Below, in pieces: positions 9,442-59,600 of a stretch of DNA of 60,725 nt. Source of the DNA: Proteromonas lacertae (taxonomy: Eukaryota); assembly GCA_002245135.1 (NCBI GenBank), contig NGBS01000877.1, positions 186,001 through 246,725 on the forward strand, given 5' to 3'. Numbering within the stretch: the stretch's first letter is position 1; every line of letters begins with the position of its first letter. The translations under genes were made by a program, and so were the position numbers. A model generated the notes under the pieces. That model did not search any database and was not told the origin of the DNA. It saw only the letters and a list, made by a program, of their open reading frames with translations.

Positions 9442-9582
9442 TTTAATAGAATAATTTGTTACATAAAAGTCATTTAGTAATATTTTTGTGGTTATTTTGT
9501 GTTTTATTAATGTGATAATGAAAATTTAAAAATATAGTCGTTAAATTAATATATATTTTGCACAACGTAATTTCAATTTTTA

Positions 9583-10812: not shown

Positions 10813-10899
10813 ATATATATTTTATTATATAAATTAATTTGATATTGTTTTAGAAAATCAAAAATTCATAATCAAACATGTTTGAAGAAACAGAATTTT

Positions 10900-12303: not shown

Positions 12304-14207
12304 ATGAATGCTGATGCAAATACAACTAAAAAACCCGTAGGTAAAGACAAATCTACACAAAAGATTGATAAAGAGGGTTATTTATACATGTCACCAGAAG
12401 ATGGTAAAGCATTAAAAAAATACTATGTCGTATATATTATTACAAACATTATTTTGCTTTATTAACCTCTTCTTTACCAAATTTCTTATAATCATAGATA
12501 TTAAGCGGAAGTACACTATCATATTACACAAATCCAAAGGTATAAATGATATTCTTACCATTCTTATAGGATGCTGAACCTGTTTCAGTTCTTAATGTTG
12601 AAGGGGCAATTTGTCGTGAAGCTGAGAATAGATCAAGTAAAAAAGCAGGATTTAAATTATTATTATCTGTATATATATCTTATTAATAATATAATATACA
12701 ATAGAGTGAAGTATCTTCTAAATTAACAACTATCGCTGAGGTTGATAGTAGATCCAGTGTAATCTTCTACAGTGATAATAAAGATGACATAATGACCTGG
12801 ATATCTATGTTAAATCGTGCAATATTACCTTACAGATGGCCATCATTATTACCATTTACAGGCATCAATACAAATGATAAAGAGTTCTTCCAAAGTTTAC
12901 CAAAACTAAAAGATACAGTGATCACTCATCGATTAGCATTATTATATAAGAAATTATGTTTATGTTCAGTAGTATTTACACCTCCAGATAATAGTAATGA
13001 AAATTGGAAAGATGGTTCAATGCAGGAATATTGGGATAATAAAAGAACCACATTATTAGAGTTAATGGACAGTGCAGAATCAATGAAAGGATTATTTGGT
13101 GATAGCCGTACTTTAAATGATACATTTTATATGATCAGTGTGAATATATTCAGATCACTTCCATTGAAAATTGATCCACAAGGAATGGGTGAAGAAGAAG
13201 AAGTGGTATTTACTGATCCATTATGGCAACATTTACATATTGTTTATGAATTATTATTAAGATTAGTAACTACTACACCATTAGATCAGACTTTACTAAG
13301 GAAATGCATTGATACTAAATTCATTGTAAATTTAATTGATCTTTTTAAATCAGAAGATATGAAAGAAAGAGAAATATTAAAAGTATTAATTATTTTTATT
13401 ATATATTATTAATAGACTGTTACACATCGAATATATGGAAAATTAACACATCGTCGTACAATAATCCGTAAAACTATTTATAATGCATTTTTCGAATTTA
13501 TATATGAACGTGATGGTAATAGTAACGAACATCCTGGTATTGCACAATTATTAGAAATATTAGCTTCTATTATCAATGGATTTGCTTTACCATTAAGAGC
13601 AGAACATAGAGATACATTAATTAAAACATTAATACCATTACATAAAGCAACTAATATTGAAGATTTTCAACCACAATTATCATACTGTATGACTTTATAT
13701 GCAAAGAAAGAACCACCACTTGCTAAAAATGTATTTTCTTTTTTTAATATTATTATTTATCATATTTAATAGATTGTAATGGGATTATTAAGATATTGGC
13801 CATTAGGTAACAGTGCAAAAGAAATATATTTCCTCAATGAATTGGAAGAATTATTTGAAACAATAGACTCCAATATATGTCTACAAATAGCTTCACCTTT
13901 ATTTAAACGTTTAGCAAAATGTTTAAAATCTGATCATTTTCAAGTTTGTGAAAGAGCCTTATTCTTATGGCATAACCCAAGAATTGCTAGTCTCTTAGTT
14001 GAAGATAAAAGTATTCGTACTATTGGATTACCTTTAATATATAAACCATTATACACCAATTCGATGGATCATTGGCATGAGTATATATATATTATTATTA
14101 TTATTTTATATTTTAGTGGTGTAAAACAATTATCTCAACACATTTTGGGTTTGTATTTAGATTGTGATGGACAATTATATGATTCTTTGAGATCATCAAC
14201 ACACTAA
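12304..14207 (+). CDS. PH domain fused to a PP2A regulatory subunit B' (B56)
   Basis: N-terminal KEGYLY...KKYYV|ILSGSTLSYY...WISMLN (PH); B56 motifs NIFRSLP, W.HL..VYE, SED..ERE.LKT..HRIYGK, GIA.LLEIL.SIINGFALPL, HFQV.ERAL. Confidence 0.9.
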
Positions 14208-17300: not shown

Positions 17301-20300
17301 ATGTAATTAGTTTATTTGATATTAATGTATATTTCAAACTATTCTGTAATGATATTGTGTTGTTTAATGTATCTATCTTTTCCTCTAATGTCTTTATCTT
17401 GTTATTTACTTCATCTGGAATAGATGATTGGTTTTGTAGACTTAATTTCTCTTCTAAAATTTCAATCAATTTCTCTTGAACTTTGGTCTTTTCATTATCT
17501 TTTGGATTGAGAATATTCTCGATATATTTAGCTATTACCAACATCAATCTTTCATTCTCTGTTAATTCATTAGAGTTGGGTAATAATGTCTTTATTGTTT
17601 TATATAAATCATTACAATTATCACTATTTATACAATCAACCATTGTTGATATAATAACACTCAATTCATTATAATCAAATTCTAAACTATTGTACATTTC
17701 TTCCAATTCATTCTTTTGTTCAGTTATTTCTTCAACTCTTACTTCTAATTGTTCTATTTTATTCATATTTTCATCAATACCATAGGACATTTCATTAATT
17801 TCTTGTAAAGTTTCATCTTCTTCTTCTTCTCTACCTGTTAATTCTCTCAATTTCTGATTTTCTTCTTTCAAATGTTCTATTGTATTTTTCAAATGATCTT
17901 TTATTGAACTTACTTCTTCTGCTTCTGGTGTTATTGTCTGGATTTCTTGATGAGGTGATGATGATTCTATTATATCTATTGCATCAGAATAATAGAATAT
18001 TAATTCTTTAATAACTTTCATATTTTCATCATTTTCATCAATATATTCATCACTTTCATCATCTTCATCATCCAATAATCCACTTTCTGCACCTTCATAT
18101 AATCCTTTAATCTTTAATTCATCATCATTTATACCTCTTCTCATTCTTCTTCTCATTCTTCTATCTCTCTTTAATATACTACTATCTGATATTATACTGG
18201 CTGAATATATCATTAATGATTCTACATCATCATCATTATTAGCCTTTCTATTTTCTGATATATCAATATTCATTGGATTCTTCAGTTGAGATTTTAAGTC
18301 ATTTATTTCATTGTTTAATTCTTGAATATTTGATTGTAAAGATTCATTATTCTTTTCTAAATCTTTATTTGTTTTATTTGTTTTCTTTATTTCATCTTCT
18401 AATGTAGAAATTTCATTCTTTTTCTCTTCCAATTCATTCTTTGTATTGATTAACTCATTATTCAATTCATTCAATTTTCTATTCAGTTTAACTATATCAG
18501 TTGATTTCACAGAAGTAGTATCTTCATATTGTTGTTTATCAATTGATAATTCTTCAATGGATCTATTTAAATCAAACGATTCTCTCTCAAGGTTAGAATT
18601 CTGTTCGGTTAAATGGTCATTTATTGATGATAATTGTTTTATTGTTTCCTTTAACTCATTCATTTGGTTTTCGTGTTCTTTATATTGTTCTTCTATTGTG
18701 TTGTATTTCTCTGTTATTTCATCTAATAATTGCTGCTTTTCTGTCAATATGTCTTGTATTGTATCTATTTTGTATTTTATTTCATTATTTTCTTCATATA
18801 AACTCTTATTTTCTATCTGCAAATTTGAATTTGTATCTTCAAGTGATTTATAACCAGTTTCTAATTCTTTATTGTGATGTTTAAGTTGTGATATTTCTAA
18901 TAGTAACTCATTAATATTGTCTTTTAGTTTATTGTCATCTTCTATCTTTTCTTTTAAGGAGTTGTATTTCTTTATTAATTCTTCATTATCTATTTCTGGT
19001 GAAACATATTCTGCACTGTTTTCTGATATTATATCTGATTTATAAACTATATATTTATAAACATCTTCACCATCTTCTTCATTCTTATTCTCATTATTTT
19101 CTTCTTTGGATTTATCAACTTTTAAACATTCATTATCATATTCCAAATTTTCATTTAATGTCTTTAAATCTTCGATCTCTTTTTCATTTTCATTCAACTT
19201 ATCTTTCAATTCATTATTCTCATTCAATACATTCTCATTCTCTTCTTTCAATTCAATATTCTCTTTTTCTATTCTTTCATATTCATTCTTCTTATTTTCT
19301 AATTCTTTTTCTATTTCATTCTTTTCTTCCAATATTTCTTTATTATTCCTTTGAAGTTCTTCTATTAAGCATTTCATTTCTTCTATATCCTCTTCATTAT
19401 TATCATTACTACATTCAGCAGATTCAATTCTTTCTTCTTTTACTAATTCATTTCTACTCTCTTCTAATTGTGACTTCAATTCTTCTATTTCATTACTCTT
19501 ATTCTCATTCTCAGACTTCAGCATTTCAATTTCATTCAAATATTCATTCTTCACTTCTTCTAATTGATTCTGTAGTTCAGAATTATCATTTTCTAACTTT
19601 GAAATGGTTTGTTCATTCTCTTCTAAAGTGTTTTTAAGTTCATTTAATTCACTTTCATCAACTTGACCTTGTTTATTCATCAGATTTTCTTCTAATTCTT
19701 CTATTTGTTTGGTTAATTGTTCATTTTCATTCTTTAAATCAGATATTTGTTTTTCACGTTGTGTAATTTCTTCGATTATATTCTTCATTTCTTCAATTTG
19801 ACTTTCATATTTCATTTTATCTAATTCTTTCAATGGAAGTGATTCTAATATTCTTAATACCTTGTTTCTATCTAACTCTGGAGATTTCTCTATTAACTCA
19901 TCTAATAATTCATCTCTTTGTTTCATTAAACTAACTAATTCAGCATCTTCATTTGTTTGATTCTTTAGATTCTCTAATTCATCACATTTTCCTTCTAATT
20001 CACTCAAATAACTTGTAACATCATCAGATTCTAAGCATTTCTTCAATTGAGCTATTTCTAACTTTATTCTTTCTTTTTCATCTTCATTTTCTACCATCAT
20101 CTCTTTTAGTTTCATATATTTCTCATGTTCAGATATCAATTGGTTACACAATGCATTTAACATATCAACATCAGCTGTAGGGTATTTCTTATACAATTCA
20201 TCTAACACTTTATCTCTATTTTCTTGGAGAGTTTCTAATTCTGATTTATGTGAATCATTTTCTAATATTTCACTCAATATTCTATGTATCTTTTCTATTA

Positions 20301-23300
20301 ACTCCTGTTTCTCTTCATATCCTTCTATATCCTTTTTCATTTGTTCATTTTCTTTTTCTTTTCCTTTTATTTCTTCATTCAATTCATCAATCTTTGCTTT
20401 AAGATCTGTGATTTCTTGTTCATTTTCTTTGATCGTTTGTATTGTACTTTCTTCTATACTTTGTAGTGACGATGTTAATTGTTCATTATCCAGCTTCAAA
20501 TCATTTATTTCATTCTCTAATTCTCTTGTATGCGTTTCTAAATTGGTTTTATCTAATTCATATTGAGATAATTTATCTGAAACATCTTCTACATTTATAA
20601 CTTGTTGTTGTTCTTCAGTTAGTTTTACTACTACATCAATCATTGGATAAACTAAAAACATATTATTATTATCATATTGTTGTTCTGGATTTGTCTCTAA
20701 GCTAGATTCTTCTGTTAGTTCAAGGTTTTCTACCTTTATTTCAAGATCATCTTCTACTTCTTCGTTTCTAGTTTCAACATCTTCTTCTTTGGATTTATCA
20801 ACTTTTAAACATTCATTATCATATTCCAAATTTTCATTTAATGTCTTTAAATCTTCGATCTCTTTTTCATTTTCATTCAACTTATCTTTCAATTCATTAT
20901 TCTCATTCAATACATTCTCATTCTCTTCTTTCAATTCAATATTCTCTTTTTCTATTCTTTCATATTCATTCTTCTTATTTTCTAATTCTTTTTCTATTTC
21001 ATTCTTTTCTTCCAATATTTCTTTATTATTCTTTTGTAATTCCTCAATATTTTGAGTCAATTCTTCTATTGAGTTTTTCATTTCTTCTATATTCTCATTA
21101 TTTTCATTATTTGCATTACTACTTTCTGTTGCTTCGATTTTCTCTTGTTTCAATAACAATTCGTTTTTACTTTCTTCTAATTCTGACTTCAATTCTCCAA
21201 TTTCATTCTTTACATCTTCTAATTGATTCTGTAAGTCAATATTTTCGCTTTCTAACTTCTCTTTTTCTTCCTTAACAGTTTTCAACTCTTCAAGTTGTTC
21301 TTCATTTGGTTTATTATTATTTTCTTCTAATTGAGATTTCAATTCTTCTATTTCCCTGACTTTCTTTCTATTATCTGATTTTAATGTTTTGATCTCATTC
21401 TTCACTTCTTCTAATTCATCTTGTAAATCAGAGTTTTCACTTTCTAACTTCTTCTTTGCTTCTTTTATCACTTTTAACTCATCAGCTTCTTCTTCATTTG
21501 GTTCTACAGGTCTATTTTCACTCTCTTCTATTTGGGATTTCAATTTTACTATCTCTTCTTCTAATCCCTTTTTCTCTTCATTAATTCCATCAATTTCTTT
21601 CCGTAATTGTTCTTCTTTATTCTCTTCAACTTCTTCATTCTCCATCCTCGCTTTATACTCTAAAAATTCATCGGTTAGCTGTATTTTCTCTGTCTTCAAT
21701 TCAACAACTTCTTCATTCAAATTATTAACTTGATTCTGAAGTTCTTCTGATTTCTTTATTAAAGCTGCTATTGGTGCTTCTGGATTAGTTTTATATTCTT
21801 CTAATTCTTGTTTTGCATCATCTAATTGTTGTTTTAACTCCTCCATTTCTGTGTCATCACTCTCTATTGTCATTAGATCATATTGAATATAATCATTTAC
21901 ATCATCATCATCATTTCCATTATTAAATGGGATTGGCTCGATATTGGCTCGTCTCATTAATCGACTTGGACTTCTGTTTGGACTATTTGTTGGTGATGTT
22001 CCATCCATAATAATAGAACCATCTACACCTAAATGATATTTAATTCCAGTAACTTCATTATTCAATTTCAATACCTGTGATTGAATGTTTGAATATTTAT
22101 TAGCCAATTCTAAGATGTCTGAATTCTTTTTCAATTCTTCAATTTCTTTCTTTAACATCTCATTTTCTTCTATTAATTTATTAATCATTTGTTCATTCTC
22201 TTCTTTTACCATTTGTAGACTATTTATCTCCATATCTTTACTCTCTATTTTAGATTCTAATTCTTCATTTATTTCCTTCAAATCATTTATCATTTTTTCA
22301 TTTTCTTTCTTCAATTGTATCAATTCAGTTGTTTTATCAGCTAATATACTCTCAATAGCTTCCAACTGTATTTTAATCTTCTTATTATCATTCTTTACTT
22401 CTTCTAATTCCTTCTTAATATCATCATAATCACTCATATTCAATAATTGTTCATTTAAATCATTAATTGATTTATTACATGTATTAATTTCTTCTTCTTT
22501 TAATTGATTGTCATTTATCAGTTGATTATTAGCTTCTTGTAATTGATTAAGTGTATTTTGGAAATTACCAATAGTTGATTGTAAATTTGAATTGTCTTCT
22601 TTTAATTGGTCGTTTTCTGATTGATAATATTTATTGCTTTCTTCTAATTGTTCATTGGATGATTTTAATAAAGAATTATCTTTTGTTAGATTTATATTCT
22701 GAGTTTTGTATTTCTCTAAATTGGTTGATAATTCATTATTCTCTTCTTCTATCTTAGTATAACTCTCTTGTAAGCTTTGTAATTCAGTATTTATGTCATC
22801 ATATTTGCTGGTAATATCAGTTAATTCATTCTGGAATAATTCAACTTCATTCTTTAATTCATCATTTTCTGTTTTCATTTTTTCTAATTCTTCTTTAATC
22901 TGGTCATAATCACATTTTGATAATAATTCATCATTCAACATATCAACTTTAGAATTTGAATCTTTCAACTGAGATTGTAACTGTTGAATTAATTCTTCCA
23001 TTTCATTTTGCTTTTTCATTAAATTGTTATATTTTAATAACAATTCAGGATATCTTGGATCAGCTTTTACTACTGGTTCTTTTACTATTTGTAGTTCTTC
23101 TTGTTGTTGTTGTTGATGATTTGTACCAGATTGTCTTCTTAATTGTTCATTTTCTTGTGTTAAAAGTGATACTTTAGTCTGTTCTTCAATTAAGTCTTTT
23201 TCTGTTTTATCTAATCTTTGTCTAATATCTTCTAACTGTTGTTGCAAACTTTCATTATCTGAATTAAAATTAAAATTATTGTCATTATTATCATTGTTTT

Positions 23301-23892
23301 CATCATTTATATTGGAGAAAAATGAGTCTGTTATTGCACTTTCATCATTTTTCAGTTTCTTTGGTGATAATTCAGTTATCTTCTGTTCAATATTGTGCAA
23401 TGTGTTGAATAATAGTTCGTTAGTCTTTGGAGTATGAGGAGTACTGTTCTGACTTATTAATTCAAGTTTATGTTGTAATTCAACTTTTTCTTTTTCAACT
23501 TTCTGTAATCGGGTAGTTAATTTTCTGTTTTCTTTATTGTATTTTGTATTTTCTTTCTTTAGTTCCAAGGTTCTATCTTGCATCTTCTTAATTCGTTCTT
23601 CCATCTTTTCAGCAGTTGGATCGGAGGTAATAAGTTGAACCATTGATTGTAAATCATTGCATTCATTATTTAACCTCTCAATTTCTTCATCTTTCTGTCT
23701 TAAGAGAATATCGTTATGATATAGTCTGTTTTGGAGTTCTGCCTCTTTTGATGATAATTGTTCTTCTAAGTCATTAATATATAGTTTTGATTGACTTAGT
23801 TCATTATAAATATCTTGTGAATGAGATAATTGGCTTAATGGTTGAGTCCTAGTTCTTAGACGATTAGGAGATTGCGAATATGTGCCATCCAT
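14364..23892 (-). CDS. Giant acidic coiled-coil protein 1 (about 3175 aa if the two ORFs are joined across a +1 break near 16835)
   Basis: 2352-aa and 813-aa ORFs of the same E/N/K-rich composition; the downstream frame is open across the upstream TGA and lacks a nearby ATG start (the ORF track starts it at TTG). Confidence 0.75.
16380..16767 (-). repeat. Tandem duplication of about 65 aa (DEL.NLEESMIENEE...HYEEGEFNEDKLDDS.LIQNVH...ICEYDVI.IE)
   Basis: Two near-identical copies in the 813-aa ORF, followed by more degenerate copies. Confidence 0.85.
19099..19348. repeat. 250-bp direct repeat, copy A
   Basis: Appears identical to 20782-21031 (offset 1683 bp); translations match in several frames. 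Confidence 0.92.
20782..21031. repeat. 250-bp direct repeat, copy B
   Basis: Appears identical to 19099-19348. Confidence 0.92.
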
Positions 23893-24149
23893 TGTAAAAA
23901 TTTATTAAATAAATTAATTAAATAAGTTGGGACTTTGAATCCTGCTTTTTAACTGTGGTTTTTGATCAACTGTTACTTTTTCTAAATTCAAATTTTTAAT
24001 CGATAAATACACTGAATCCATCCTAAAAATACGATAATCGTGGCTGAATTTTTTTTATTTATTGGTAAGTGGAGAGAAAATGATGAATCAAGAAGAATAT
24101 AACTCCAAATTCACTAATTAACACAAATATAATGAAATTAAAAAGAAAA

Positions 24150-26702: not shown

Positions 26703-27811
26703 ATGCAACACGTATGAGATTAATAATTATTATTATCTAATTATAGCGTATTACCATTGCTATTTGTTTAATTGCCCTTTGTTGTAGTGCTTGCGCTGTA
26801 AATCGTATAACATTTTTCTTTTATAGTTGTATAGCTCGTCGTGCTGATGATACAGAAGCTCCAATAACTCAATCACCAACTACGCAAGCACCAACACATT
26901 CACCCACAACTCCAGCTCCAACTACTCAAAAACCAACTACTTTAGAACCAACTACTCAAAATCCAACAACCCAAGCACCAACAACTCCTAAACCAACAAC
27001 TCCTAAACCAACAACTTTAGAGCCAACAACTGTAAAACCAACAACTCCAGCACCAACAACTCCTAAACCAACAACACAAAAGCCTACAACTCTAGCTCCA
27101 ACAACTCCAGCAACCCAAGCACCAACAACTCCAGCACCAACAACACCAGAGCCAACAACTGTAAAACCAACAACTCCTGAACCAACAACTCCAGCACCAA
27201 CAACTCCAGCACCAACAACCCAAGCACCAACAACTCCAGCACCAACAACACCAGAGCCAACAACTCAAAAACCAACAACTCCTGAACCAACAACTCCAGC
27301 ACCAACAACTCCTAAACCAACAACACAAAAGCCTACAACTCTAGCTCCAACAACTCCAGCACCAACAACCCAAGCACCAACAACTCCTAAACCAACAACT
27401 TTAGAGCCAACAACTGTAAAACCAACAACTCCAGCACCAACAACTCCAGCACCAACAACTCTAGCTCCAACAACCCAAGCACCAACAACTCCAGCACCAA
27501 CAACACCAGAGCCAACAACTCAAAAACCAACAACTCAAAAACCAACAACTCCTGAACCAACAACACAAGCACCAACTACTTTAGAGCCAACTACTTTAGA
27601 GCCAACTACTCAAAAACCAACAACTGGATCACCAACAGCTGAACCAACTACAGAAGCACCAACTGATAAACCAAATGATTCAACAGGTATTAGTGTTTAT
27701 ATAGGAGCTGGTGTAGGAGCAATTGTTATCATAGCTATCGCAATAGCTATTGCATGTATTGCTAAACGTAAGTGTTCAAAGAAAAACAATGAATTATTAT
27801 TACCAAAGTAA
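26703..27811 (+). CDS. Type I membrane mucin-like protein with PTTxx pentapeptide repeats (missed by the ORF track)
   Basis: ATG at 26703; intron 26712-26746; hydrophobic signal ITIAICLIALCCSACA; probable 30-bp intron 26805-26834; Thr/Pro stalk; TM segment VYIGAGVGAIVIIAIAIAIACIA, then KRK and TAA at 27809-27811. Confidence 0.9.
26876..27664 (+). repeat. 15-bp minisatellite CCAACAACNNNNNNN, about 52 units with higher-order blocks
   Basis: Directly visible period-15 array encoding PTTPA/PTTPK/PTTQK/PTTLE/PTTPE. Confidence 0.95.
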
Positions 27812-27931: not shown

Positions 27932-30900
27932 CTATTTAGGTGGATCCCATAATCTGATTGAATGATCAAGAGAAGAAGAGACTATATAATTCAAATCTGG
28001 ATGATATAACAACCCTGTTATTTTATTTTCATGTCCATATAAACACCACTGATTTGAAGGATCTTTTAAATCAAATACTATTCAATATAATAAATACACA
28101 ATATTATACATTTTATTTCACCATTAGCACAACCAGCAACCATATAATTGTCATATGTAACAATTGAACTAACAGTAGAGCCAGTATTAGATATTTTGTA
28201 ATTATTTAAAATCTTTACAGATGAATTAGATACACTCCATTGTCTAACGATTGAATCAGAATATCCAACAAATAACGAATCAAATGGATGAATAGCTGTA
28301 TCATAAAACCCATAAGGTAATCCATTAACATTTTGACATACTAATTCACTAACCATTGACTTGGAATGAGGTACTTTTAAAGTCTTTGAATTTTGACCAG
28401 ATAAATTCCATATTCTCACTGTTCCATCTTTAGAACCAGACATAAATTTCTTAGAAGATCTTATCTTATCAACAATACTAACTCCACCTCTATGTTGTCT
28501 TAATATTTGTCGACTATCAAGCTTTCTCAAATCGATTAAACTACATGTATTATCTTTAGAACCACTTAATACCATTGTATCAATACAGGATAATCCATTT
28601 ATACTATCTTTATGACATTTATATTCTTTTGTAATTGTTCTTTTTTGTCTTGGATCTATTATCAATATATTCCCTTTATTATTTCCACATATTATTATAT
28701 TTATATCTGATGTTTGATTATCACAATACATACATTTTATTGATTCTTCTCTTGGACATTCTATATTTAATAATATTTTATTTGTTTCAACATCCCATAT
28801 ATTGATATGACCATGAAAATGACTTGATATAACCTTCATTCCACTGTTGTGATATAAAACATCTGTTATTTCATCATCACATTTTATTTTTCCCATTCCA
28901 TACATATCTTTTGTTCTTGTTACAGGTATTACACTGATTGTGTTATTACTAGTTGTTGCTATACAATATGGTGTTGTTGTGTGTAAAGGTCCCCATATTA
29001 ACTTCATTATATTTGAATCAGATTCAGGTATGGTTATTACTATTGGTTGCATAATATGTGAGTGAAATAAATCATTGTTTAAACTTTGTCTTATTTTCAT
29101 TCCTCTATATATTGATTGTATTGTTAAAGTTGCTTCTTCTAATGTCATTGGTATTATACTTTCATCACTTCCATCACCTAATGATACTTCTGTTCCTCTT
29201 CTTTGTCTTTTTATTACATTTGCACTGACTATATTCCTATTAGTTACATCTGCACTTTCTGCTTGTCTGTGATACAATGATGTGTATCTGACCTTTTGAA
29301 TTGCGGTTACACTTCTCATCGTTTGAGGTTGTTGAGGTTTATACCTTCTAGCAGATGGATGGAAACATTCATCAGGTGACTAAATAATAAATATAAAACA
29401 TACTTCTCTTGATTTCTCTAAAGTACTGCCATCAATGGAAAGATCCAATTGATCTGAAGGATGTGCATTAATTGAAGGAAAGTTACTAGGAGGTGGCATA
29501 TCAGAATGTTTTGTTGATTTGCATGGATGCTTTAATGAATTTGGTCTTGAATCATTCTTTTGGGAATGAGTAGATGCTATTCCAAGTGATCTATAAATAT
29601 TAAGAAATAAAGAATATACTTTTTAGAAGAACTTGTAGAAATTGGAGGTAATTCTGTTGATACTGGTGTTGAAGCATTTTTTGTTGGTAATTTTGTTGGT
29701 GATTTTGTTCTTGTTGGTTTTTGCAATGCTTCTTTTGGTTCATTTTCATTTTGATGTTGTTGTTGTTGTTGTTGCTTTATTGTCACACTTTTTCTTAGTG
29801 TTTTTGTATTTTCTATGGCTATTGGTGTAGACACTAATTCTGGTTGATTGATTATCATTGTGTTATTATTGGAATTGATTATTACAGTATCATCAATTAT
29901 ACTAGTTTTTCCTATGTAATAATAGTATTTAAGAATATATACTCTTTACATCAGAATTAGGTGAAATATTGATAAAATCTATTCAATATAATTACATATA
30001 TTAATAATGATCATACCATCTTCAAATTCTTCAGAATCATCATCAATTGGCGAAGGTATCTTTTCCACATTAATTTCTTTCTTTTTCTCACCTTTTGGTA
30101 TGGAAAATGGTAGAATTGGTCCTTTCTTCCACGATAAACCATTACTATCATCACCAAACTCTTTTACAGAAGCCGTAGCTGGTCTTGGTAATTCTACAAT
30201 AGGTGGAAACATACTTCCTTGATTATCGCCATAACTATCAATCTTAACTTTAGCAATATATGGATGTAATAGCAATGCAGTAACTGATGGTCTTTTACTT
30301 GGCTCCCTTTCTAAACATAGTCTAATAAAATCCAATACATCTGCTGGAATTGTATGTGGTAATTCAGGTAATACCGCATTATTAGCTATATTAAACATCG
30401 CTGCTATTGGGCTGCTGTATTGTTGCCATGGTGGTTTACCTGTCGTCATTTCAATCATTGTACATCCTACACTCCATATATCTGCTTTTAACCATCCTTG
30501 CTCTTGACATTCTCCTTTTATTACTTCTGGAGCCATCCACAATGGTGTTCCTTGTAGTTTACTTTTCTCTGTCTTGTGAAATTTGAATCTTTTACTTGAA
30601 CCAAAATCTGAAAGTTTTAATGTTCCATCATATGATAGTAATAAATTTGCACCTTTGATATCTCTATGTGCAATTCCATTTCTATGTAAATACTCTAATC
30701 CAAGTAATATTTGTTTGCAATATGACTTTAAAATATCACCTTCTATTATACCATATTTTTGTAATCTCATTTTAATACTTCCACCAGCTGCATATTCAAG
30801 AAATATATTTAAATATGGTAATTCTATTTGTACACCATAATACTGTATTATATGTGGATGGTTAAAACTCATTAACATTGTTATTTCCCTTTCCAAAGAC

Positions 30901-31488
30901 ATCTATTAATAAGTTTTAAATATAAAATATAAAATATATATACTCTTTGATAACTATCATAATCAGTTATTTCTATTTCTTTTACAGCCATCATTTTACC
31001 CAATGGCAATGAAAACCCTAAGTATACATTGCCTGTAGCACCAGTCCCTAATATCTCTGCTTTTTTCCACTTAATTAAAGTGGTTTGTGGTATATTGGAT
31101 GTTTCTTGTTTTATATTATTTACAACTGGTAAAGATGTGTGTAATAAATCTCTTTCCGTTGAAAAGTTTTTTGGTAACGTTTCAATTTTGTTGATTATTA
31201 CTTTTACTGTACCAGTATTAGACCCTAGTAGTTCATCCAAATCATTTTGAGTCTCAAGTGTTATAGTATCATTATCTTGATCCAAATACCTCAAAGAAAC
31301 AGGAAATCCATAATCATCTGATAATCTCGATTTTAACGATTCTATTGTAGTAGTCTCATCAATTACTACTACTCTAAAAGATCCATCGTATTTACATTTC
31401 AGTCTATAACAGATTAGATAAAAAATATATCTTACCTTAGTACTCTTCCTCCATTCGATGTAAAAGAAGCTGATTGAGATACATCCAT
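27932..31488 (-). CDS. MAP3K (STE11/MEKK-like) with N-terminal PB1 domain, IQ-like motif and C-terminal WD40 propeller
   Basis: RLKCKY...YLDQDNDTITL (PB1); LGTGATGNV, MAVKE, HRDIKGAN, DFG, GTPLWMAPE; IQSIYRGMKIR; WD repeats ending IRLWD; in-frame splicing links all the ORF fragments. Confidence 0.88.
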
Positions 31489-31678
31489 TCTTGAAATGAT
31501 TATCTAATTTTTCATTCAAACAAAAAAGGTATTAATAAAAATGACCGTTTCAATCTATTCAAAAACCAAATAAACAGTGAAGAACTAAAAATATTATAAA
31601 AACAAATAAAATTAACCATAAAATCGACATACATAAATTATACATCTATACAACTTAAGATTATAAAGGATTTTAGTA

Positions 31679-43306: not shown

Positions 43307-46273
43307 CTAAAAATATTTACGAGCATCTCCTTTCTCTTTTAAACTCAACAATACATCAAACAAAGTTTCCCCACAATTAGATCTTCTTATATCCAAAGCA
43401 GATATTTTATCAACTCCTTTTGGTCTTCGTATTAAATCTAATAATTGATATAATAAATTCTCAGGAGTACCCCAATTCGTTAATTCTTGAAATGACATTT
43501 GTCTTTGTTTACATTGTAAGAAATATAACATATCATCTGCTCCAATATAACCATCTATATCATAATCCAAACATCTAAACCAATATTCAATACTTGAATC
43601 AGACATTCTGTCTTTTTCAAAGAAATAAAACCATACAAAATCTAAATAATTCATTGTATTCTTTACTGTTGATGATAATTTCCTCGCTTTACCACTTAAC
43701 ACTTGTTCTAAACAAGCATTGGTTAATGAATATTTAGATGAACTTTTAAAATCATAAATATTAATTAAACCATCTCTATTACCATCGATTGATATAAAAT
43801 CTGAATAAATATTCATTATATAATCCGAACTGAATATTTGGACTCTATTTACGTTACTAGTCAAAGCAATAAAGAATGCTTCAATTAAATTGGAGGATTT
43901 TAAATCACTTAATGATAATTCATTATACTTTTGTTTACTAACTGTATAGAAAATTGCTATTGTTACTGTATCAATATATATTTTATGCAGATTTGAATCT
44001 CTTCTAATTTTATCCAAGTCATTTTGTGATAAGAATATCTGTAACAATGGTTTTAATTCATCTTTACCAATTGATGTTTTTTCATTTACATTTAATAAAT
44101 TCCAATATTTTAATGTTGTATCACAGTATAATACTTTATTTTGATAATAATCCATAAATACATTCAGAGTTAATTGAGTGTTTTTATCTTTACATATTCT
44201 ATTATACAGCAGCATTGATAAAGGTGCTGGAAATCCACAAATCTATGAACAAATAGAATTAAATAAATATATATATATATATATACATCATTTGTCAACA
44301 TTGATAATTCATTAATATTATCTTTGCTAATTATTCCATAACATGACTTAAATATATTATTAATCTTCAACAGTGTTTGACTAGGAGCAGATTGAGATGG
44401 ATTTCTAAATGATTTTTTAAACAAAACAGTTGGTAAATAATGATGTTCAGTTGCTTCTTTTAATAAAGAAGTTGTCCTAGCTTTCTCTTCTTCATACATC
44501 GTATTAAGTGTTTGTAACTTTTGTACTGATGTTGTTAATTGTAAAACTCTCTTTTTATCATTTGCTTCTAATTGTTGTATTCTTTTTTGTAATTCTTGTT
44601 TCTCTTCTTTTAATTTCTTCATTTCTGTTTGTAATTGTAATACCTTTTCACTATCCACATTGTTTTGTGTTGAAGTATTATTATTACTATTTTTTGATAA
44701 ACATGAACTTATTCCTAATTGATATAAAAATGAATTTACTTCTTCTAAATCACTTACTAAATATACTGGTTTTCTTGAAATACCAGCAGGTAATAGAGCT
44801 TTATCTTTATTTAAGTTAACATCTAATGCTAATTGTTTAATACAATACAAATAATGTCTTGTATTTTTATATACATCTTTAACTGGAATCATTGTTAATA
44901 CACCATGATAATATATCTTCCTATTATATTGGTATAATAAAGTAGTTAATGTTATTTGTGAACCTGTTAATTTCGCTTCTTTTAAGTCTTTAATATCTTC
45001 ATCTGGTGTCGCTGATCCAAATATAACTGATATATCTTTATTCAATATGGATGGTAATGGCCATTGTGTTATTTTACAGAAATTGGGAGTTACATGGATG
45101 ATCTTTTCATTATTAATTCCCTATTGATAATAGAACTGCAAATATATATATACTTTATAATCAGTTACAATATAATAAAATTCTGGTATAAATTGAATCA
45201 TTGCATGTAATGGATCAATTTCACTTGTTCCAGTAACTTTAGTGATTGGATCTGATTGCATTAGTTTAGCAGATGATTGTGTTTGAGGTTGGCTACTGGA
45301 TCTTTCAACGGAAACAATATTATCATCATAATCATCACCATCTTTACTGATTCTAGCTCGAATATAGGCTTGAAGTCTTTGCCTTTGTAAATAGTTTTCT
45401 ATTGCTTGTGTTATATCTGCTGCATTTACTGGTTTGTGACTATCAATAAAGCATAATATATATTTTTTTATAAATACAGAATATCTGCAATTCCTAATTT
45501 TTGAGCTTCTTCTATTTCTGCACTATCCGCATCTACTAATGCTGTGAATATAAACACTGGAAGTGACTTCAACTCAGGGTGACTTCTAATCGATTTCAAA
45601 ACATCCACTCCATTCTTGCCTGGCATTAATAAATCTAAAATAACAGCATCATACTATTTATATTTTAATTAAATTTTGCATATATATACTGTATTACTAA
45701 TTATATTATTCAATGCTTCCACTCCGCTATGAGCTAAGGTTGGTATATATCCCTTACTTGATAATATTCTACTTAATATCTTCAGATTGATATCTTCATC
45801 ATCAACACACAGTATATTCCTTAATGTTCTTGTATCTGGGGAAATATAGAGTTTTGTTTTTGTTACTTCTTTTTCTAGCACTTCATTGACTTGTTTTACC
45901 ACTTGAGTTCTGATTAAAGGTTTTGTTATGTATCCATGAGCTCCTAATTCGATACTCGTCACAACATCCTTTTCATCGTCCTAGATAAAAAATATATTAT
46001 ATGGCATACTTGTGCAGAAATCATGATAATAATCATATCGTCCAGCCTTGGATCTAGCTTAACTTTCTTTAAAACCTGAAATCCATCCATCTTAGGCATA
46101 TTTATATCTAATATCATTAATGCTGGTATATTAAATTTTAAATATTCGAGGGCTTTCTCACCTGAATCAACTAGATTTAGATTGTAGCTATTTTTAAGGA
46201 ATCTATCCAATGTAGTTCTAATGATTAAATCATCATCTACCACTAGTATCGTTTTCTTTTCATCAGTTTGCAT
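43307..46273 (-). CDS. Receiver-receiver-PAS-coiled coil-PP2A B'' (PR72-like EF-hand) fusion protein
   Basis: Introns 45981-46009, 45654-45689, 45440-45477, 45121-45153 and 44243-44286 give one open frame; two REC domains, a LOV-like PAS, and the B'' signature DFVWF...EKD....SIEYWFRCLDYD.DG. Confidence 0.88.
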
Positions 46274-46509: not shown

Positions 46510-49156
46510 CTATTTATTCTTCTCAATATAGTATTCAAGCGACACTTTACTTCTATCTTGTAAATAGCCTGCCATTAGAATATTCTCTTCCTCTAATTCA
46601 TCAACCCATTTCTATAAGCATATATAATAACATAATAATATATACCTCTTTAACTACTGGACATTCCTTAACATAGTTGCAAGGGTAACTGCCTACTCTT
46701 CCTTTCAATTCACCTTCCTTCCAATCCAGTGTAGACTCAGGTGGACTTAATACTTTTATTCTATCACCTTTACGGAAAGGTAATTCATCTTCTTTCTCAG
46801 TTTTGAAATCATACATAGCAATAACATACCTATTCTCTTCAAAATGTTCTTCCTTCATAACAAAACCTTTTTCATACTGTTCAATTAAGCTTTGACAATT
46901 AATCTCAACATCTTCTTTAGGTTCCCAACTAGCACCATTCAAATCACAATTCTTCCAGAATACTCTATATTGAACAATACCATCATTAGATAAAAACCTT
47001 TTACCAATAATTCTATCAACAGTATAAGGTAAATTTCTTTTCACAGCCAATTCTTTATTCTCAATATTAACATCTGGTGTTGATAATGGTGTAGTAGTTA
47101 ATAATGATGGTTGAATTGGAGTAACAGGAGCAGATACAGATGAAGATAATGACGTTCTATCTGATATTCTATCAGGTTTTATTATTATTTCTTTTTTAAT
47201 TACTGTCTTATCTCTACATAAAGGACAAATGAAAGAATCATTATAATCACTTTCAGTCAAATCAAAGCAACTAAGATGAATATAACCATGACAATGATCT
47301 CTAGTCAAATTAGAATGACAAACAACCATCCCAGTTCTGTTGTAATTCAAGCACTTACAATATCTCTTTAATATTCCATGTTTTGGATAATTCAATTTGA
47401 ACTGTGATTCACTTCCACCACCTCCATAATTATTCTCATCTTCACTATCACCTGTTTCATCATCTCTTTCAAGATAATTCCATTTTAATTCACATAATTT
47501 ATTATACTATTAATAACAAACAATAATATTATATATATAATTATATACAATATTATTAATATAGAAATCTTTCATTGTTTCACCTACTTTTCTGTATATT
47601 TCAAGTCCTTTATAACTGTGATATTTTATACAGTTATTCCACACTCTCATTACATCATCATGAAAATCAGCATATTGGAAATATATTTTATTCTTTACAT
47701 TATTCTCTATGGTACGTATATCCATAGGTTTCTTTATAATCTCAAAATAATCAGGAACATTATCATTTATTGGATTTACTGGTTGTAAAAATATCGCTGA
47801 TTTCTTATACATTTTGATTGTATTTATTACAGATTTTAAGACACTGTCAAATATTAACGATTGTCTATTTACCATATCAGGACTCCATACTGGTGGAACT
47901 TCATTATCATCATCATCGTCATATTCAATTGGGTTTGTTATAATTGGTAATTTCGTATGGGAAGATGAAGAAGATTTTGTTGGTTTTTTCATATTCTAAT
48001 TATTATTATAACAAAATTATAAGTATATAAAAATACAGCTTCAAAATAGAAATACATCATTATATCTTGTTGTTTAATAATTGCTAAAAACTTCTCTATA
48101 CTATCAGTATATTTCTCAATATTAATAGGCGGTAATAAAAACCCATATATGATAATAACGAATGTTCTTCACATTGACAACATAACCAATGTTCTGTATT
48201 TGTATAAGTTAATATTCCACGACATTTACTGTGAAATGGAGCAAAACAATTACTACATCTGTGAAATTCTTTACCTTCCTTTTTCTCTTTATTACATACA
48301 ACACATTTATTCATCATTTTGAAATCTTGTGCACAATAAGGACAAACATATTGACTTTTACTACTTGCACATTTTGAACAACATTGTTTATAACAGAATA
48401 AACACCAATTTGGATGGTTTTGAACTGGTTGATTGCAGATAAAACATTCTGTATCATAATATACACTTGGATAATCGTATTGCATTCTTTTGTACTTCTT
48501 TAAGGCAGTTATTTTGAATTTTAATGTATTTGATTTTTTAGCTGTGATATATGCTTTTATACTAGGATCAACGTTTTTTATTGATTTGTCGATATAAATC
48601 AATGAATTTTCTTGGTTTTTCTGAGTTCCCCAATAATAATATGCATATTTATCTTTTTCATTTACATAAGATACTGGGTAGGAATTTTTTAGACATTCTT
48701 GAATCTTTTCATCAGTTCTTACTCTATGTTCACACATTAACCATAATACATTGATTTTATCAAGTAATGTTAATTGATCAAATGAATGGAATTTGAATCG
48801 AATGGGTATTCTCTTCTCAGCAAAATAATCTTTTAATGACACAATGAAATCAGCTGGGGGTTGAGTAATCCATTCCCTATTTGTGATTTTTTTAATTAGA
48901 CTTATTATTGAATCTTTCTATTAAATATAAACGTAAAAAGTTATACAATTTCTTTAGTTTTGGTATTTACACAATTATTCAATGTTTCTTTCAGTTTCTA
49001 TAATTATAATAAATATATTATACATCTTTATTTAAAAGAATAGTATTACATCCTAAAATACTGTTACATGAACTAATTAAATAGCATTTTACAATTATAC
49101 TATATGAAGTACAGGACAGCAGCATGCTTCCATGTGCATTCAGCATTCATGTCCAT
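46510..49156 (-). CDS. Chromatin reader with DDT/WHIM1-like, Cys-rich PHD-type fingers, bromodomain, PHD, chromodomain and SH3
   Basis: FDQLTLLDKINVLWLMCE (WHIM1-like); Cys-rich fingers; FLQPV...VPDYFEIIKKPMD (bromo); YTVDRII...YRVFWK...SWEP (chromo); AMYDF...DELPFRKGD...W..GE...G.YP.NYV (SH3); junction at 48096-48144 uncertain. Confidence 0.8.
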
Positions 49157-53617: not shown

Positions 53618-56600
53618 TTATGGTGTGGTTGGTTCATTTAATAATCCGTCTATTTCACTCAACATATTCAGTAATCTTTCTTCTGTAGCTTTCTTTTGAG
53701 TTTGTATTTGATCTACTAAAGCTTGCATATATTCAGTCTTATTAGTAATAGTAGGTAATGGAATATTATGTTGCTCTAATAATGTCTTTAAATCTAAACT
53801 AATATTAAATTCACCATCATCTTCATCATAATCACTACTATCAGATCTACTTTCCATTATATCTTTAGAATTTCTCTGTTGTTGTAATAATAACTTTATT
53901 CTCTCATTTAAAGGTGATAAACCTGCATCAGAAGAGTATAATGAAGATAATTCTTCTTTAATTTTATTCACTAACGGAGTTAATTTGGCATTTATTGTTT
54001 CTGATTCATTATTTCTAAATTTTTCTAATATGTCAATATAATCCAAAACATCATCTGTTGGAGGGATTTTCAAATTATTCTCTTTCATTATCTTCAACAA
54101 TTTCATTCTAAGATTCTCCAATTTTTCATTTTTATACAATATATCAATATTATCACACATTATAGTATCTAATGTAATATTTTCATTCATCGTTATATTA
54201 TTTGCATTTCTCACTATCATTGGAGTATAATCAAATGATTTACTTAAAGTGATTTCTGATTGGCTAAAACTATCTTCACCACCACCTAAACCATCTTGTA
54301 AACGGTAAAATTGAGGTGGTTTGATTGGTGTACAGAGTGATTTGGCTATTCCTAATTCAGTATTGAGTGATGATATTTGATGTTCATATTGATCTATTTT
54401 GTTTCTTAATATCATTATTTCTTCATCTTTATTATTATTATCACTACTAATTGTTAGATTCAGTTGTTGTATTATGTCTATTTTATCAAATTCTGATTTT
54501 GAATATGGTATTGATAATAAATCTAGATCTACATGTGATAAATCAAATTGAACTGATGTTGATTCATCAAATGGCTTTTGTTGTTGTGGTAATTTTGCTG
54601 GTGAATTTTGTTTATATTGAGATAATTCCTCTGTTAATGTAATAATCTGTTCTTCATATTGAGACAATTTCTCTCTCATTTCTTCAATCTCTAAATCTGT
54701 TCCATCAAAATATAGTGTTTGAAGTCTGTAGGATGTAGTTGAAAGATAATTTGATTTGATTTCTTCAGGATTAACATAAGCATGTAATTGCTGTTCAAGT
54801 TCATTGAAAATAGAAATTGTATTTTCTTTCTTTTCTCCACTATTACTGCTGTTATTACTGTTATCTAAATCATTATCAGAATCAGATAATAAAGTAATCA
54901 TCTTTGTATATCCATATCTTAAATTGATTTGATCTTGGTGTAGATAATTATTGATTAATTGAGATGGTTTATCTTCATCAATACCTGGACTTTTCAATGG
55001 AGTATATTGTTGTTTGTATTGTGATAATTCTTGGGTTAATGCTAAAATTTGATTTTCATATTGTTCTATTTGTTCTTTTAATGTTGTTTCTGTTTGAATT
55101 GGAGGTATTTCAATTGATAATGGATTTGGTAAATATGATATTAATGATGTATATATTGGAGTAGATAAAGATAGTTCTATACTGTAATTATTATCGGTAT
55201 AAGAATGATTTATTTGAGATGTTGATGTTGGTTCTATATATATTGAATATTCTTGTTTATATTTAGATAATTCTGTGGTTAAACATTCAATTTGATGAAT
55301 ATATTGACTTATTATTTCTTGAGAATTATCACTTATTTTTATTGTTATTACATTGTTTTCTATCTTTGATAATTCAGATGGTTTATTCTCTACCAATATT
55401 GAATCACATTCTTCTAATTCTAAATTAATTATTGGTTTTTCTTCTTTCATCATTGATGATGGTTCAATATATACTGATTCTTCTTTGTATTTACTTAATT
55501 CACTCGTTAAATCAATAATTTGTTGTTCATAACTCTTTAATATATCATCTTTATTATCATCATCTTTTTCTTTACTTTCTTCTCCTCTTATGTTTATAAC
55601 ATCATTCATTTGGATTTCATTCGAGGATTCTTTAACATCATCTTCTGTTTCTATTATTATGGAATCATATTCTTCTAATTCTAAATTAATTATTAGTTTT
55701 TCTTCTTTCATCATTGATGATGGTTCAATATATACTGATTCTTCTTTGTATTTACTTAATTCACTCGTTAAATCAATAATTTGTTGTTCATAACTCTTTA
55801 ATATATCATCTTTATCATCATCATCTTCTTTTTCTTCTTCTTCTCCTTTTATGTTTATAACATCATTCATTTGAATTTCATTTCTAGATTCGATTTGAAC
55901 TATTTCACTAGATAATACTTCACTTGATTCATTCTTTTCGATATAATTAGATGGTTCTTCTCTCATTGCTTCAATTTCAGAGTGATAAACATCAATATTC
56001 TTTGATTGTTCTTCCTTCTCATTATCTTCCCATGAATAACTTTCATAATCTACAAATGATAATTCCATATCATTCGATTTACCCTTCTCTTCATTTTTTT
56101 CTTCTTTTTCTATCATTACCATATCATATTCTTGAATTATTAATTCAACATCTTTCTCTTTATTCTCTTCTTCCACCATTTCTGAATGTGAATTCATACA
56201 ATTTTCATATTTGTCAGTCATCTCTTTCAGTTGTTCTAATAGTTTGCTGTTATTCTTTTGAATATGTTCTTTCTGTAGTGTAACTGTATCTATTTTATCT
56301 TGTAAAGTCTTTGAAGATGATAATAAATTATCATTTTGATGATTCAATTCAACTAGTTCTGTAGATTGTTTTATATATTTATCAGTAAATTGATCAAATA
56401 TTTCTTTCAATTCAGAAACATTCTCAATCTCTTTTGGTGTAATATCTAAGTATAATTGAATTGTTTCTATTATTTCATATAGTAAGGATTTGTATTCTTC
56501 ATTTAAAGCTGAATTTTCTTTCAATTTTTCATTTTCTTGTGATATATTTTCTAATAATTCTTTTGTCTCTTTCAGATTCTGTTTCATTTCATTTTCTTCT

Positions 56601-59600
56601 TTTTCTATTTGGTTATATTTTGCTTGTAAATCATCATATTCTCTTTGAATATCATTAATTTCATTTTCTAATATTCCTTCAGCTTCTATAGTTGAATCAT
56701 CTAAAGTAATCTCTTTCACTTTATTATTCAACTCATTCTTTTCATTTTCTAATTCTTTATTTCTATTAACTAAAACTTCAATTTCTTCATTCAATTTAGA
56801 TTTAACTATATTCAGTTCATCAATTTCTTCTTCTTTACTATTCAACATATTCTTTAATCTATCAATCTCTTTCATATTATTTTTCATTGTATTATTCAAT
56901 TCATCTATTTGTTTTTCTAACTTTGTTATTGTTTCTTTTTCTTCAGATGTTTTACTTGTTTGTTCTTCCATTAATTCTTTTACCATCAATTTCAATTCAT
57001 TATTCTGTTGTCTTAACATTTCAACATCTTTTTCATACTCACATATCATTGAAATTTTACTATTTAAACTAATAATATTCTGTTCTAATTGAGTGCTTCT
57101 CTTCTTTAATGAATTTGCTTCTCTTTCCTTTTCTTTATATTTCTCTTTCAAATCATTATTCTCTTGTAACAACACATTACTTTTATTTATCATTACACTT
57201 TCTCCATCTCTCATCATAGAAGAATATTGATCTTCTATATTCATTAACACTGGCTCATAGTCACCCATTATTTCATTCATATGCTTAATGAATGAGTTTC
57301 TTTCATCTTCTATAGACATCAACTGTGATTCTAACTTCTGTATTTTATTATTCAATCTTACATACACAAAACTCTTTTTGACTTGCGAATCAATATTTAT
57401 ATCATCTAAAGATACTGGCTGATATGATAATGTTAATGGTTTATACTCTATTATATCCAATTCATTATCATCATCATTATCTTCTTTTTCTTCTTCTTCT
57501 TCATTTATAATCTCTACATAATCACTTACTAAATAAACCAATTCAATTAATTCTGATGGTGATGGTAAAGGTTCCATTGGCTGTAAATAATTACAAAATA
57601 CTAATTCATTAGCTGAACATGTTGATGAACTAGATGGTGATTTTGGTGACATATTTAATCCAGTAATTGGAAATGAACGGAATGATAATTCAATCAAATC
57701 ATCTCTCGGAGTTTGAGTAGATTCTTCATACACATAAGTAGTAGAAGGGAATTTAATTTCTGTTTCAATAATTGTAGTTATTGGATATTCAACTATATGT
57801 AGCACAACATTTTCTCTTTCTTCTTTCTCTTTAGATAATTGTATTTCTCTCTTTACAGTAAGTGTAGAATCTAAACTATTAATAAAAACATCATCAGTTT
57901 TACTTTCATTTACTAATTCTGTTAATATTATATCAGATAAATCAACTTCTAAACTATTTGATGAATAGAATCCCATTTCTAATTCATTTGTAACTTCTGG
58001 AATAAGTATATCATAGACATCTTTAACTGGTATGTTCATTCTTTCTAATATTATTTTCTCTAACTGTTCAGTAATTTGTTCTTCAGTTATTTCATTACCA
58101 ATAACATCAGTTTTATCATAATCAATCTTCACTTTCAATTCTTTGTATGTTTCATCAATAAACTTTAAATATGGTGAAATATTGAGGTATTTTGATTGTT
58201 GATCATATACTAGTAATTCTCCTAATATCTTATCAAGGTTATTGAATGTATTATTGTGTTTTCTATAATATTTAACTAAGAAATGAACTAATCTACTTTT
58301 ACTGATAACTAAAGCTAAATCATCATCATTTTTGATTATTTCTAACTTATAATAAGTTAATAATTCTGTCACTCTATCATATTTTTCTCTCATTTCTTTT
58401 TCTACTCCCATTAACTCTCTTTTTGTCTTATTTAATTCAAATAATCGGTTAGTGTCCATATTTGATATATCTTTCTTTAATAATTTCTGCTCTTTATCCA
58501 ATTCAGCCAATTTCTTGTGAATGTTCTCTATATCACTTCCTAATTCATCATTCTGTTCATTTAATTCCTTCTGTTTTGATAATAATATTTCTATATCATT
58601 TACTGATGGTTGGAATATTGCAGTATTTCTTCTTATATCATTATCTAATACTTTGCACTTTTCTTTTAATGAATCTATTACTTCTACTAAATCATCCATT
58701 GTAACTGATTCATCAGCATATGTTTTAACTAATTCAATATCTTCTTGTAGCTGTTTCACTTTTTCTTCTAAATCAGACTTGATATTTTCATTTCTTTCCT
58801 TTTCTTCACATAAATCAATTAATTCATTATTTAATCTTTCTTTTTCAATTTCTATTTCTTGAATACTATCTAATATTTCAGAATTCTTTACATCTTTTGT
58901 TACAAGTAATTTCTTCATATTGATTATGGTCATTTATTACTTTCAATAACTCATCTTTATCTGGCAATCTATTGATCAATTCGAACTTCTCATTCTCTAA
59001 TTCATCTATTAGAGCTTGTAACTCTTTACGTTCATCTTTAAGTGAAACGCAGGATTGTGATTTATCTCCATATCTTATATCAAAATCACTAAATTGAATA
59101 TATTCCAATTCATTTGAATTTGGATCTAATAACATTAATTTACTACTTATAATATTCACCATATCATCTATAGATATAGAATAAGAATCTTCATTATATT
59201 CTTCATTGGATATTTGCATTGCTTGATCATATAACTCTTTTAAAGATTCGAACAATATTTCTTTTTCATTATCATCATAATTCATATCAATTAAACTAAA
59301 TGTAATTATTTCATTATTTTTACTCTCACCATCATCATCATTATTCATTATAACATCTACTTTATCATATATAACAATATCATTATCAGTTGATAAACTA
59401 TTTAATAATGATGAACTATCTAGTGATAGTGAATGTTCCATTGTTGCAGTTGATGGTGATGATGATGAGACTGTATCATTTGGATCAAATTGCATTGGAG
59501 CTTGATATTGTAACTCTTTAGTTGAATCTATTAGATTCTGATTTTCATTCATTAATCGAACATTTTCTTTTTTTGTATTGTCTAATTCTTTAGATATACT

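Follow-up and report, generated by a model that had tools for sequence, protein, structure and literature searches.

The window analysed here, a 60,725-nt, gene-dense stretch of Proteromonas lacertae DNA with a GC content of 27.4%, carries on its minus strand a gene of six exons for a predicted protein of 928 amino acids, in which two receiver domains (REC1 and REC2), a PAS domain and a coiled coil precede a B'' regulatory subunit of protein phosphatase 2A (PP2A), in the order REC-REC-PAS-coiled coil-PP2A B''. The fusion of receivers and B'' appears to be real, conserved and so far undescribed, and would thus apparently represent a new type of output for a known kind of regulator. The gene (43307..46273) and its features are listed in Table 1.

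Table 1. Exons, introns, domains and motifs of the predicted 928-aa protein (positions within the window).
Feature	Position	Strand	Basis
Exon 1, aa 1-88: ATG, REC1 beta1 to beta4	46010..46273	-	PF00072, E 5e-17
Intron 1, 29 nt, GT..AG, cuts REC1	45981..46009	-	retention gives stop at aa 105
Exon 2, aa 89-185: REC1 end and REC2 start, one frame	45690..45980	-	two PF00072 stretches
Intron 2, 36 nt, cuts REC2	45654..45689	-	in-frame stops inside
Exon 3, aa 186-244: REC2 with D192, T222	45478..45653	-	frame, Pfam, residues
Intron 3, 38 nt, cuts REC2 directly ahead of conserved Lys-Pro	45440..45477	-	sole in-frame GT/AG solution
Exon 4, aa 244-339: REC2 Lys-Pro, helix 5 with P0189-like extension, linker, PAS start	45154..45439	-	no Pfam match alone
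Intron 4, 33 nt, cuts PAS	45121..45153	-	retention gives stop at aa 350
Exon 5, aa 340-617: remaining PAS, coiled coil, hydrophobic motif, B'' core start	44287..45120	-	one frame
Intron 5, 44 nt, cuts B'' core	44243..44286	-	conservation stops at donor in 10/10 relatives
Exon 6, aa 618-928 and stop: B'' EF-hand core, short C-terminus	43307..44242	-	EF-hand_13, PDB, fold
REC1, about aa 7-124; predicted phospho-acceptor D56 at 46106-46108	45873..46255	-	PF00072, residues
REC2, about aa 142-262; predicted phospho-acceptor D192 at 45633-45635; matches single receiver of P0189	45385..45821	-	PF00072, residues
PAS, about aa 319-437, LOV-like without Cys or flavin contacts	44827..45216	-	weak PAS_9, PDB alignment, Atlas
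Coiled coil, aa 496-564, predicted parallel homodimer	44446..44652	-	fold, conservation, dimer prediction
Counterpart of PR70 N-terminal hydrophobic motif, aa 567-573, Val for F128	44419..44439	-	mapping inferred from vertebrate homologues
EF1 loop, aa 770-781, canonical in 928-aa protein	43751..43786	-	alignment
EF2 loop, aa 843-854, D-x-D-x-D-G, Asp at position 12; preceded by R840 (PR70 R398)	43532..43567	-	alignment
Counterpart of PR70 helix 439-446 contacting the catalytic subunit, aa 882-889: Q883, D886, R889	43427..43450	-	alignment

The gene model was read from genomic DNA, and joining the exons by script yielded 928 codons followed by one terminal stop. The initial annotation had proposed that five short introns unite what it counted as four ORFs into one reading frame from the receivers to B'', and this proposal was borne out, with the correction that six exons make up the frame, as the spliced frame is free of stops, all five predicted introns (29, 36, 38, 33 and 44 nt for introns 1 to 5) possess GT..AG borders and each of them splits a domain: REC1 is cut by intron 1, REC2 by introns 2 and 3, the PAS domain by intron 4 and the B'' core by intron 5. 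The GC content of the introns amounts to 11-21% as compared to 25-35% for the exons, and retention of intron 1, 2, 3, 4 or 5 would result in an early stop at aa 105, 192, 247, 350 or 656, respectively. When a range of +-40 nt was scanned, introns 3 and 5 were each found to have one in-frame, stop-free GT/AG solution and introns 1, 2 and 4 to have 2, 3 and 4 such solutions; here the shortest one was chosen each time, and the alternatives alter few residues only. REC1 ends and REC2 begins within exon 2, REC2 ends and the PAS domain begins within exon 4, and in exon 5 a single frame runs from the remaining PAS domain through the coiled coil into the first part of the B'' core. Pfam identified PF00072 in exons 1, 2 and 3 (E 5e-17, 2e-8 and 1e-7) and EF-hand_13 (PF17958) in exon 6 (E 6e-10), with exon 4 by itself giving no Pfam match. 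A stop made by poly(A) addition was considered and rejected: a motif with one mismatch is located 3' of the stop, but matches of this kind are frequent throughout the window, and the relatives share the same end point. The neighbouring gene on the upstream side has a predicted 34-nt intron before its end at 46510, which lies 236 nt ahead of the ATG; the adjacent minus-strand ORFs located there (46510-48917), which encode a bromodomain, a chromodomain, Cys-rich PHD-like stretches and an SH3 domain, probably belong to a single spliced gene for a chromatin reader with SH3 at its end.

A search with exon 5 among 732 candidates of 152-487 aa yielded 10 proteins in 2 clusters, about 89% identical to the query, and in all ten of these close relatives similarity ends at the intron-5 donor. 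Beyond it, P0181 continues after nine codons in the +1 frame of exon 6 (a score reached by 0/2000 shuffles) and P0184 continues into the +2 frame (4/2000 shuffles), hence the intron-5 stretch varies in length between conserved flanks and is intron-like. The C-terminal end of P0014, a 71% relative with 4 members, is found at the same position, which supports the short C-terminus. Among more distant homologues, a HMMER search with exon 6 yielded 961 proteins at E <=0.001, and a search restricted to proteins of 546-2000 aa gave 12 matches among 2690 candidates, all of them ordinary B'' proteins at 25-31%. The best 150 of the 961, together with the latter search, made up 160 distinct B'' matches, among them P0014, P0078 and P0095 as fragments of a short-tailed subfamily. 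All 160 were scanned with Pfam, whereby neither REC nor PAS was detected in any of them. The architecture, which the initial annotation did not know from characterised proteins, was thus not seen to be widespread, and no paper on it was found. One of the B'' database matches, P0117, contains an apparent intein (PF14890, E 1e-6) at about residues 528-1139, in a conserved motif before EF1, which starts with Cys and ends with His-Asn ahead of Cys; inteins are not known from the PP2A B'' family.

A profile of the subfamily was run over 7324 candidates of 1162-3315 aa, a length range in which orthologues near 930 aa may be missed, and it returned two matches, one ordinary B'' protein and P0189. The latter is an Ala/Pro-rich metagenome protein of 1338 aa, which in a single frame combines PF00072 (E 2e-15) with PF17958 (E 1e-12) and is laid out as REC-coiled coil-B''. 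Its single receiver carries low-complexity insertions with the Asp, Ser and Lys residues intact, Pfam gave no PAS match, and an equivalent of REC1 is absent. The receiver core scores alike against REC1 and REC2; the post-receiver helix, an extension of helix 5, matches REC2 (8/5000 shuffles) and not REC1 (1359/5000). P0189 is the only full-length receiver-bearing homologue that was found, which counts against the reading favoured below, and being a single-member cluster on a 5.3-kb contig it counts as one witness. Scans of JGI contigs with exon 6 and with P0176 gave 152 and 47 pattern matches, none of which was confirmed, a search of the large ESM Atlas clusters with P0189 returned bacterial receiver clusters at 0.85-0.86 alone and no REC-B'' cluster, and generic B'' motifs had 0 matches in about 4 million characters of a published Proteromonas annotation archive.

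Phylogenetic analysis placed the 928-aa protein into a clade with P0161, P0095, P0176 and P0189, with a FastTree support of 99 on 160 rows (16 near-duplicates, one intein-bearing row and matches covering <200 residues being excluded). This five-row short-tailed clade was recovered in 100/100 under LG+C20 on 40 hand-picked rows, including long and oddly composed ones, and on the EF-hand core alone (31 rows) the 928-aa protein pairs with P0189 at an SH-aLRT of 100; a residual contribution of long-branch attraction remains conceivable, both proteins being long branches of odd composition. Shared traits are a D-R/K-M motif, found in 4/5 subfamily rows versus 14/155 ordinary ones, and tails of 9-18 residues as compared to an ordinary median of 73, a tail of <=25 residues occurring in 4/155 ordinary rows. 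As the fusion is present in two very different genomes, it would be an old, selected design.

Concerning the receivers, the PF00072 scores of exons 1-3 (62.5, 35.0 and 32.6 bits) all exceed the curated cut-off of 30.2. REC1 was found to keep D13/D14, D56, S86, Y105 and K108-P109, and REC2 keeps D148/D149, D192, T222 and K246-P247; the residue alignment thereby agrees with the earlier claim that both retain the acidic pocket, the acceptor Asp, the Ser/Thr and the Lys. By sequence criteria both receivers would be phosphorylatable, all catalytic residues being kept. The aromatic switch position in beta5 is occupied by Y105 in REC1, by I243 in REC2 and by Val in P0189.

The PAS domain is matched weakly by PAS_9 (21.3 bits, E 3e-4, below the curated cut-off of 27), the match covering the exon-5 part only, and the best ESM Atlas matches of the region are PAS at 0.95, with 10/10 in agreement. 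In the single-sequence fold of exon 5 the PAS domain has a pLDDT under 50 and the long helix alone is confident. Earlier described as LOV-like, the domain retains this resemblance, the best PDB sequence match of exon 5 being a LOV-type kinase domain (E 0.003) with phototropins weaker, but neither the photoactive Cys nor the flavin contacts remain: in the alignment of the LOV NCRFLQ motif to DISVIF the Cys is replaced by I369, the Arg by S370 and the Gln by F373, and the two LOV Asn positions align to Y402 and H411. These positions comprise the photoactive Cys and the flavin-binding residues of LOV domains, and with all of them replaced flavin binding is unlikely. The possibility of a LOV photoreceptor was hence rejected, as the GxNCRFLQ cysteine and the flavin-binding Arg, Gln, Asn and Asn are all absent; the domain is like phototropin LOV2 and the LOV domains of LOV-histidine kinases in sequence and differs from them in the missing Cys and polar flavin contacts.

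The following coiled coil is a confident 69-residue helix in the single-sequence fold and the best-conserved part in the close relatives, with 68/70 and 69/70 identical residues versus 87% for the PAS domain. Dimer prediction gave a parallel homodimer extending in register to Y567, with a score of 0.60 against 0.00 for the best control, a contact agreement of at least 89% and a pLDDT of 81-82. The mark was reached by 21/30 homodimers and 0/23 monomers in a microbial benchmark and by 17/29 homodimers and 0/30 monomers in a eukaryotic one, where only 1/7 of the homodimers without an older solved relative reached it, and the score obtained here may reflect similarity to already solved coiled coils. 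The model supports homodimerisation through the coiled coil. In the 928-aa protein, P0176 and P0189 the coiled coil ends in equal register before the hydrophobic motif, and the dimeric coiled coil is predicted to end at the counterpart of the scaffold-latching motif of PR70.

For the B'' core, PR70/PR72 were the only PDB sequence matches (E 1e-30), and its model (pLDDT 92) superimposes on the PR70 holoenzyme chain with a TM of 0.86, i.e., the fold is common with the B''/PR72 family (human PR70 and PR72; PDB 4I5L, 4I5N, 4MEW, 4I5J). Together with the PF17958 match and the conserved contact residues this corroborates the PR72/B''-type EF-hand region which had been assigned to the C-terminus. PR70 residue numbers were taken from the accessible portion of PMC3698643 and mapped onto the PDB-matched PR70 chain. 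According to the same portion, B'' subunits are under calcium control, R398, EF2 and D443 of PR70 contact the PP2A A and C subunits, and the exchanges R398D and D443K impair holoenzyme assembly and activity (PMC3698643). PR70 residues 105-129 were described to contribute much to scaffold binding and the C-terminal region to be a substrate platform (PMC4090178, accessible portion). The counterparts of R398, D401, D403, D405 and D443 are kept in 5/5 subfamily rows, EF2 of the 928-aa protein presenting R840, D843, D845 and D847. Two EF-hand loops, the residues of the R398 and D403 scaffold contacts and of the D443 catalytic-subunit contact, and a putative hydrophobic motif ahead of the core are features common with PR70.

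Other features differ. Position 12 of EF2 is Asp, versus Glu in 128/154 ordinary B'' rows, R288 is lost in 4/4 subfamily rows covering the position (Ser in the 928-aa protein) and W277 is K or R in the subfamily (Lys in the 928-aa protein), all of which were counted against the favoured reading; among ordinary B'' proteins the W277 position is W in 69/152 and the R288 position R or K in 121/155. Within the hydrophobic motif (I125 and F128 in PR70) L568 is kept and F128 is replaced by V571, a position at which P0176 and P0189 have Phe. Of the subfamily rows, the 928-aa protein is the one with a canonical EF1, that of P0189 being degenerate, and the YEHF and HPG motifs, present in 137/155 and 131/155 ordinary rows, are absent in 5/5 subfamily rows. 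The Val in place of F128, the degenerate EF1 of P0189 and the missing motifs were likewise counted against the favoured reading. Next to R288 and F128 also the substrate platform is gone, the C-terminal tail comprising 17 residues after F912 and lacking a counterpart of the PR70 substrate-binding region. As this tail is equally short in the relatives, the protein is assigned to a divergent subfamily and not to the ordinary B'' proteins. At the N-terminus, REC-REC-PAS-coiled coil takes the place of the variable low-complexity region of the PR70/PR72 family.

A His kinase or HPt donor was not identified by Pfam among the 52 scanned window ORFs. The domain counts given in the accessible portion of PMC12129017 list 10 receivers, 1 HisKA, 1 HPt and 5 B'' EF proteins for Proteromonas, 39 receivers, 19 HisKA, 1 HPt-superfamily and 1 B'' EF protein for Cafeteria, and 0-2 receivers, 0-1 HisKA, 0 HPt and 1 B'' EF protein for each of the Blastocystis proteomes. 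From these counts, which are of domains and not of architectures, we infer that a complete relay would be present in a Proteromonas-like opalinatan. PB1 was counted as 0 in 8/8 Blastocystis proteomes and EGF_2 as 2-4 per genome (PMC12129017, same portion); the window ORFs contain one PB1 and two EGF_2, a content closer to that expected of a Proteromonas-like opalinatan than to that of Blastocystis. The PB1 ORF lies upstream of a protein kinase ORF (29982-31531, minus strand), likely as one PB1-kinase gene, and a teneurin-like EGF-repeat ORF closely followed by a 7TM ORF resembling secretin and Dictyostelium cAMP receptors (9571-11737, plus strand) is possibly a single adhesion-GPCR-like gene. 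Further minus-strand ORFs of 828, 2355 and 1771 aa (14367-23901 and 53621-58933) gave no Pfam match at E 1e-4, and neither did a 354-aa plus-strand ORF on a tandemly repetitive stretch (26747-27808), which resembles a Thr/Pro-rich mucin-type protein. A gene for a B56 (B') PP2A regulatory subunit, comprising three ORFs, is located at 12705-14204 on the plus strand, hence the organism uses other PP2A B subunits as well.

Considering these data, we moderately favour the reading that the protein functions as a response regulator acting on the assembly or targeting of PP2A, whereby a phosphorylated receiver shifts the coiled coil and Ca2+ at EF2 serves as second input. A His kinase or HPt protein would phosphorylate REC2, the conserved receiver, with REC1 and the PAS domain as lineage-specific additional inputs. 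REC2 phosphorylation would then shift the dimeric coiled coil and thus expose or hide the motif binding the scaffold (A) subunit, Ca2+ at EF2 being a second requirement. Because the C-terminal tail that normally serves substrate binding is missing, the choice of substrates or sites for PP2A would also fall to the N-terminal half. Phosphorelay control of PP2A is kept conditional here, as the B'' half is divergent and tail-less and some scaffold contacts are lost. More tentatively, the protein may represent an old, overlooked class of eukaryotic response regulators, in which phosphorylation switches PP2A assembly via the dimeric coiled coil and which would act as coincidence detector for His-Asp phosphorelay and calcium.

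It is very improbable that the fusion is an artefact, i.e., that separate REC and B'' genes stand head-to-tail or that the assembly is chimeric. Such an artefact could be suspected since every junction was predicted from the DNA, introns 1-4 are without support from relatives and exon 4 has no Pfam match, but all five introns interrupt domains, neighbouring exons are throughout linked by one that carries parts of two domains, 10 relatives run in one frame from PAS through the coiled coil into the B'' start, P0189 holds REC and B'' in a single frame, and 236 nt separate the upstream gene end from the ATG. The reading as one gene follows from the domain-splitting introns, from the divergence of the relatives at intron 5 and from the single frame of P0189.

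Two other explanations accept the gene and question its output. The presence of two tandem receivers of which one is common to P0189, the aliphatic residue at the aromatic switch position of REC2 and P0189, and the loss of the substrate tail, which means that something else must recruit substrates, would all fit a protein that does bind PP2A but whose receivers dock on a kinase or HPt protein or act as phosphate sinks, so that PP2A is brought to phosphorelay proteins and not switched. This explanation is considered unlikely, as the strongly conserved coiled coil with its fixed register to the scaffold motif has the look of a signalling helix, which a pure tether would not need. Quite doubtful is a B'' half which no longer assembles with PP2A, the protein then serving another partner as a dimeric scaffold or decoy under receiver and calcium control. 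Although the loss of R288, W277, F128 (in the 928-aa protein), the YEHF/HPG motifs and the tail, the long branch and the 5 B'' paralogues listed for Proteromonas, of which one would be free to drift, point in this direction, the R398, EF2 and D443 counterparts are kept in 5/5 very divergent rows, P0176 and P0189 retain F128, and W277 and R288 vary among ordinary B'' proteins too.

Bacterial REC-coiled coil-effector regulators, including the REC-PP2C phosphatases and PleD/WspR, consist of a receiver, a dimerising helix and an effector, with REC-PP2C feeding into Ser/Thr dephosphorylation. The 928-aa protein shows the same order; the bacterial effectors, however, are catalytic and belong to other families, whereas here the putative effector is a targeting subunit, itself non-catalytic, of a PPP-family holoenzyme of eukaryotes. 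Among eukaryotes, Dictyostelium RegA is a response regulator of His kinase-HPt-response regulator relays, and fungal Ssk1 and the plant ARRs likewise possess intact receivers ahead of the effector and an intron-containing gene. Outputs described for eukaryotic His-Asp signalling are transcription, MAPK cascades, cAMP and Raf-like kinases, and those listed in the accessible portion of PMC6324907 include no PP2A subunit, in contrast to the B'' output assigned here from sequence. PP2A has 0 mentions in the accessible portion of PMC8142344. A description of a REC-PP2A B'' fusion was not found in the literature searched, and with subscription papers and InterPro architectures outside this search the term undescribed is provisional.

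Should the favoured reading hold true, the receiver inside a PP2A regulatory subunit would constitute a direct phosphorelay route to the main Ser/Thr phosphatase and a new mode of regulating PP2A assembly, an idea which is directly testable, as it concerns a single protein with evident point mutants.
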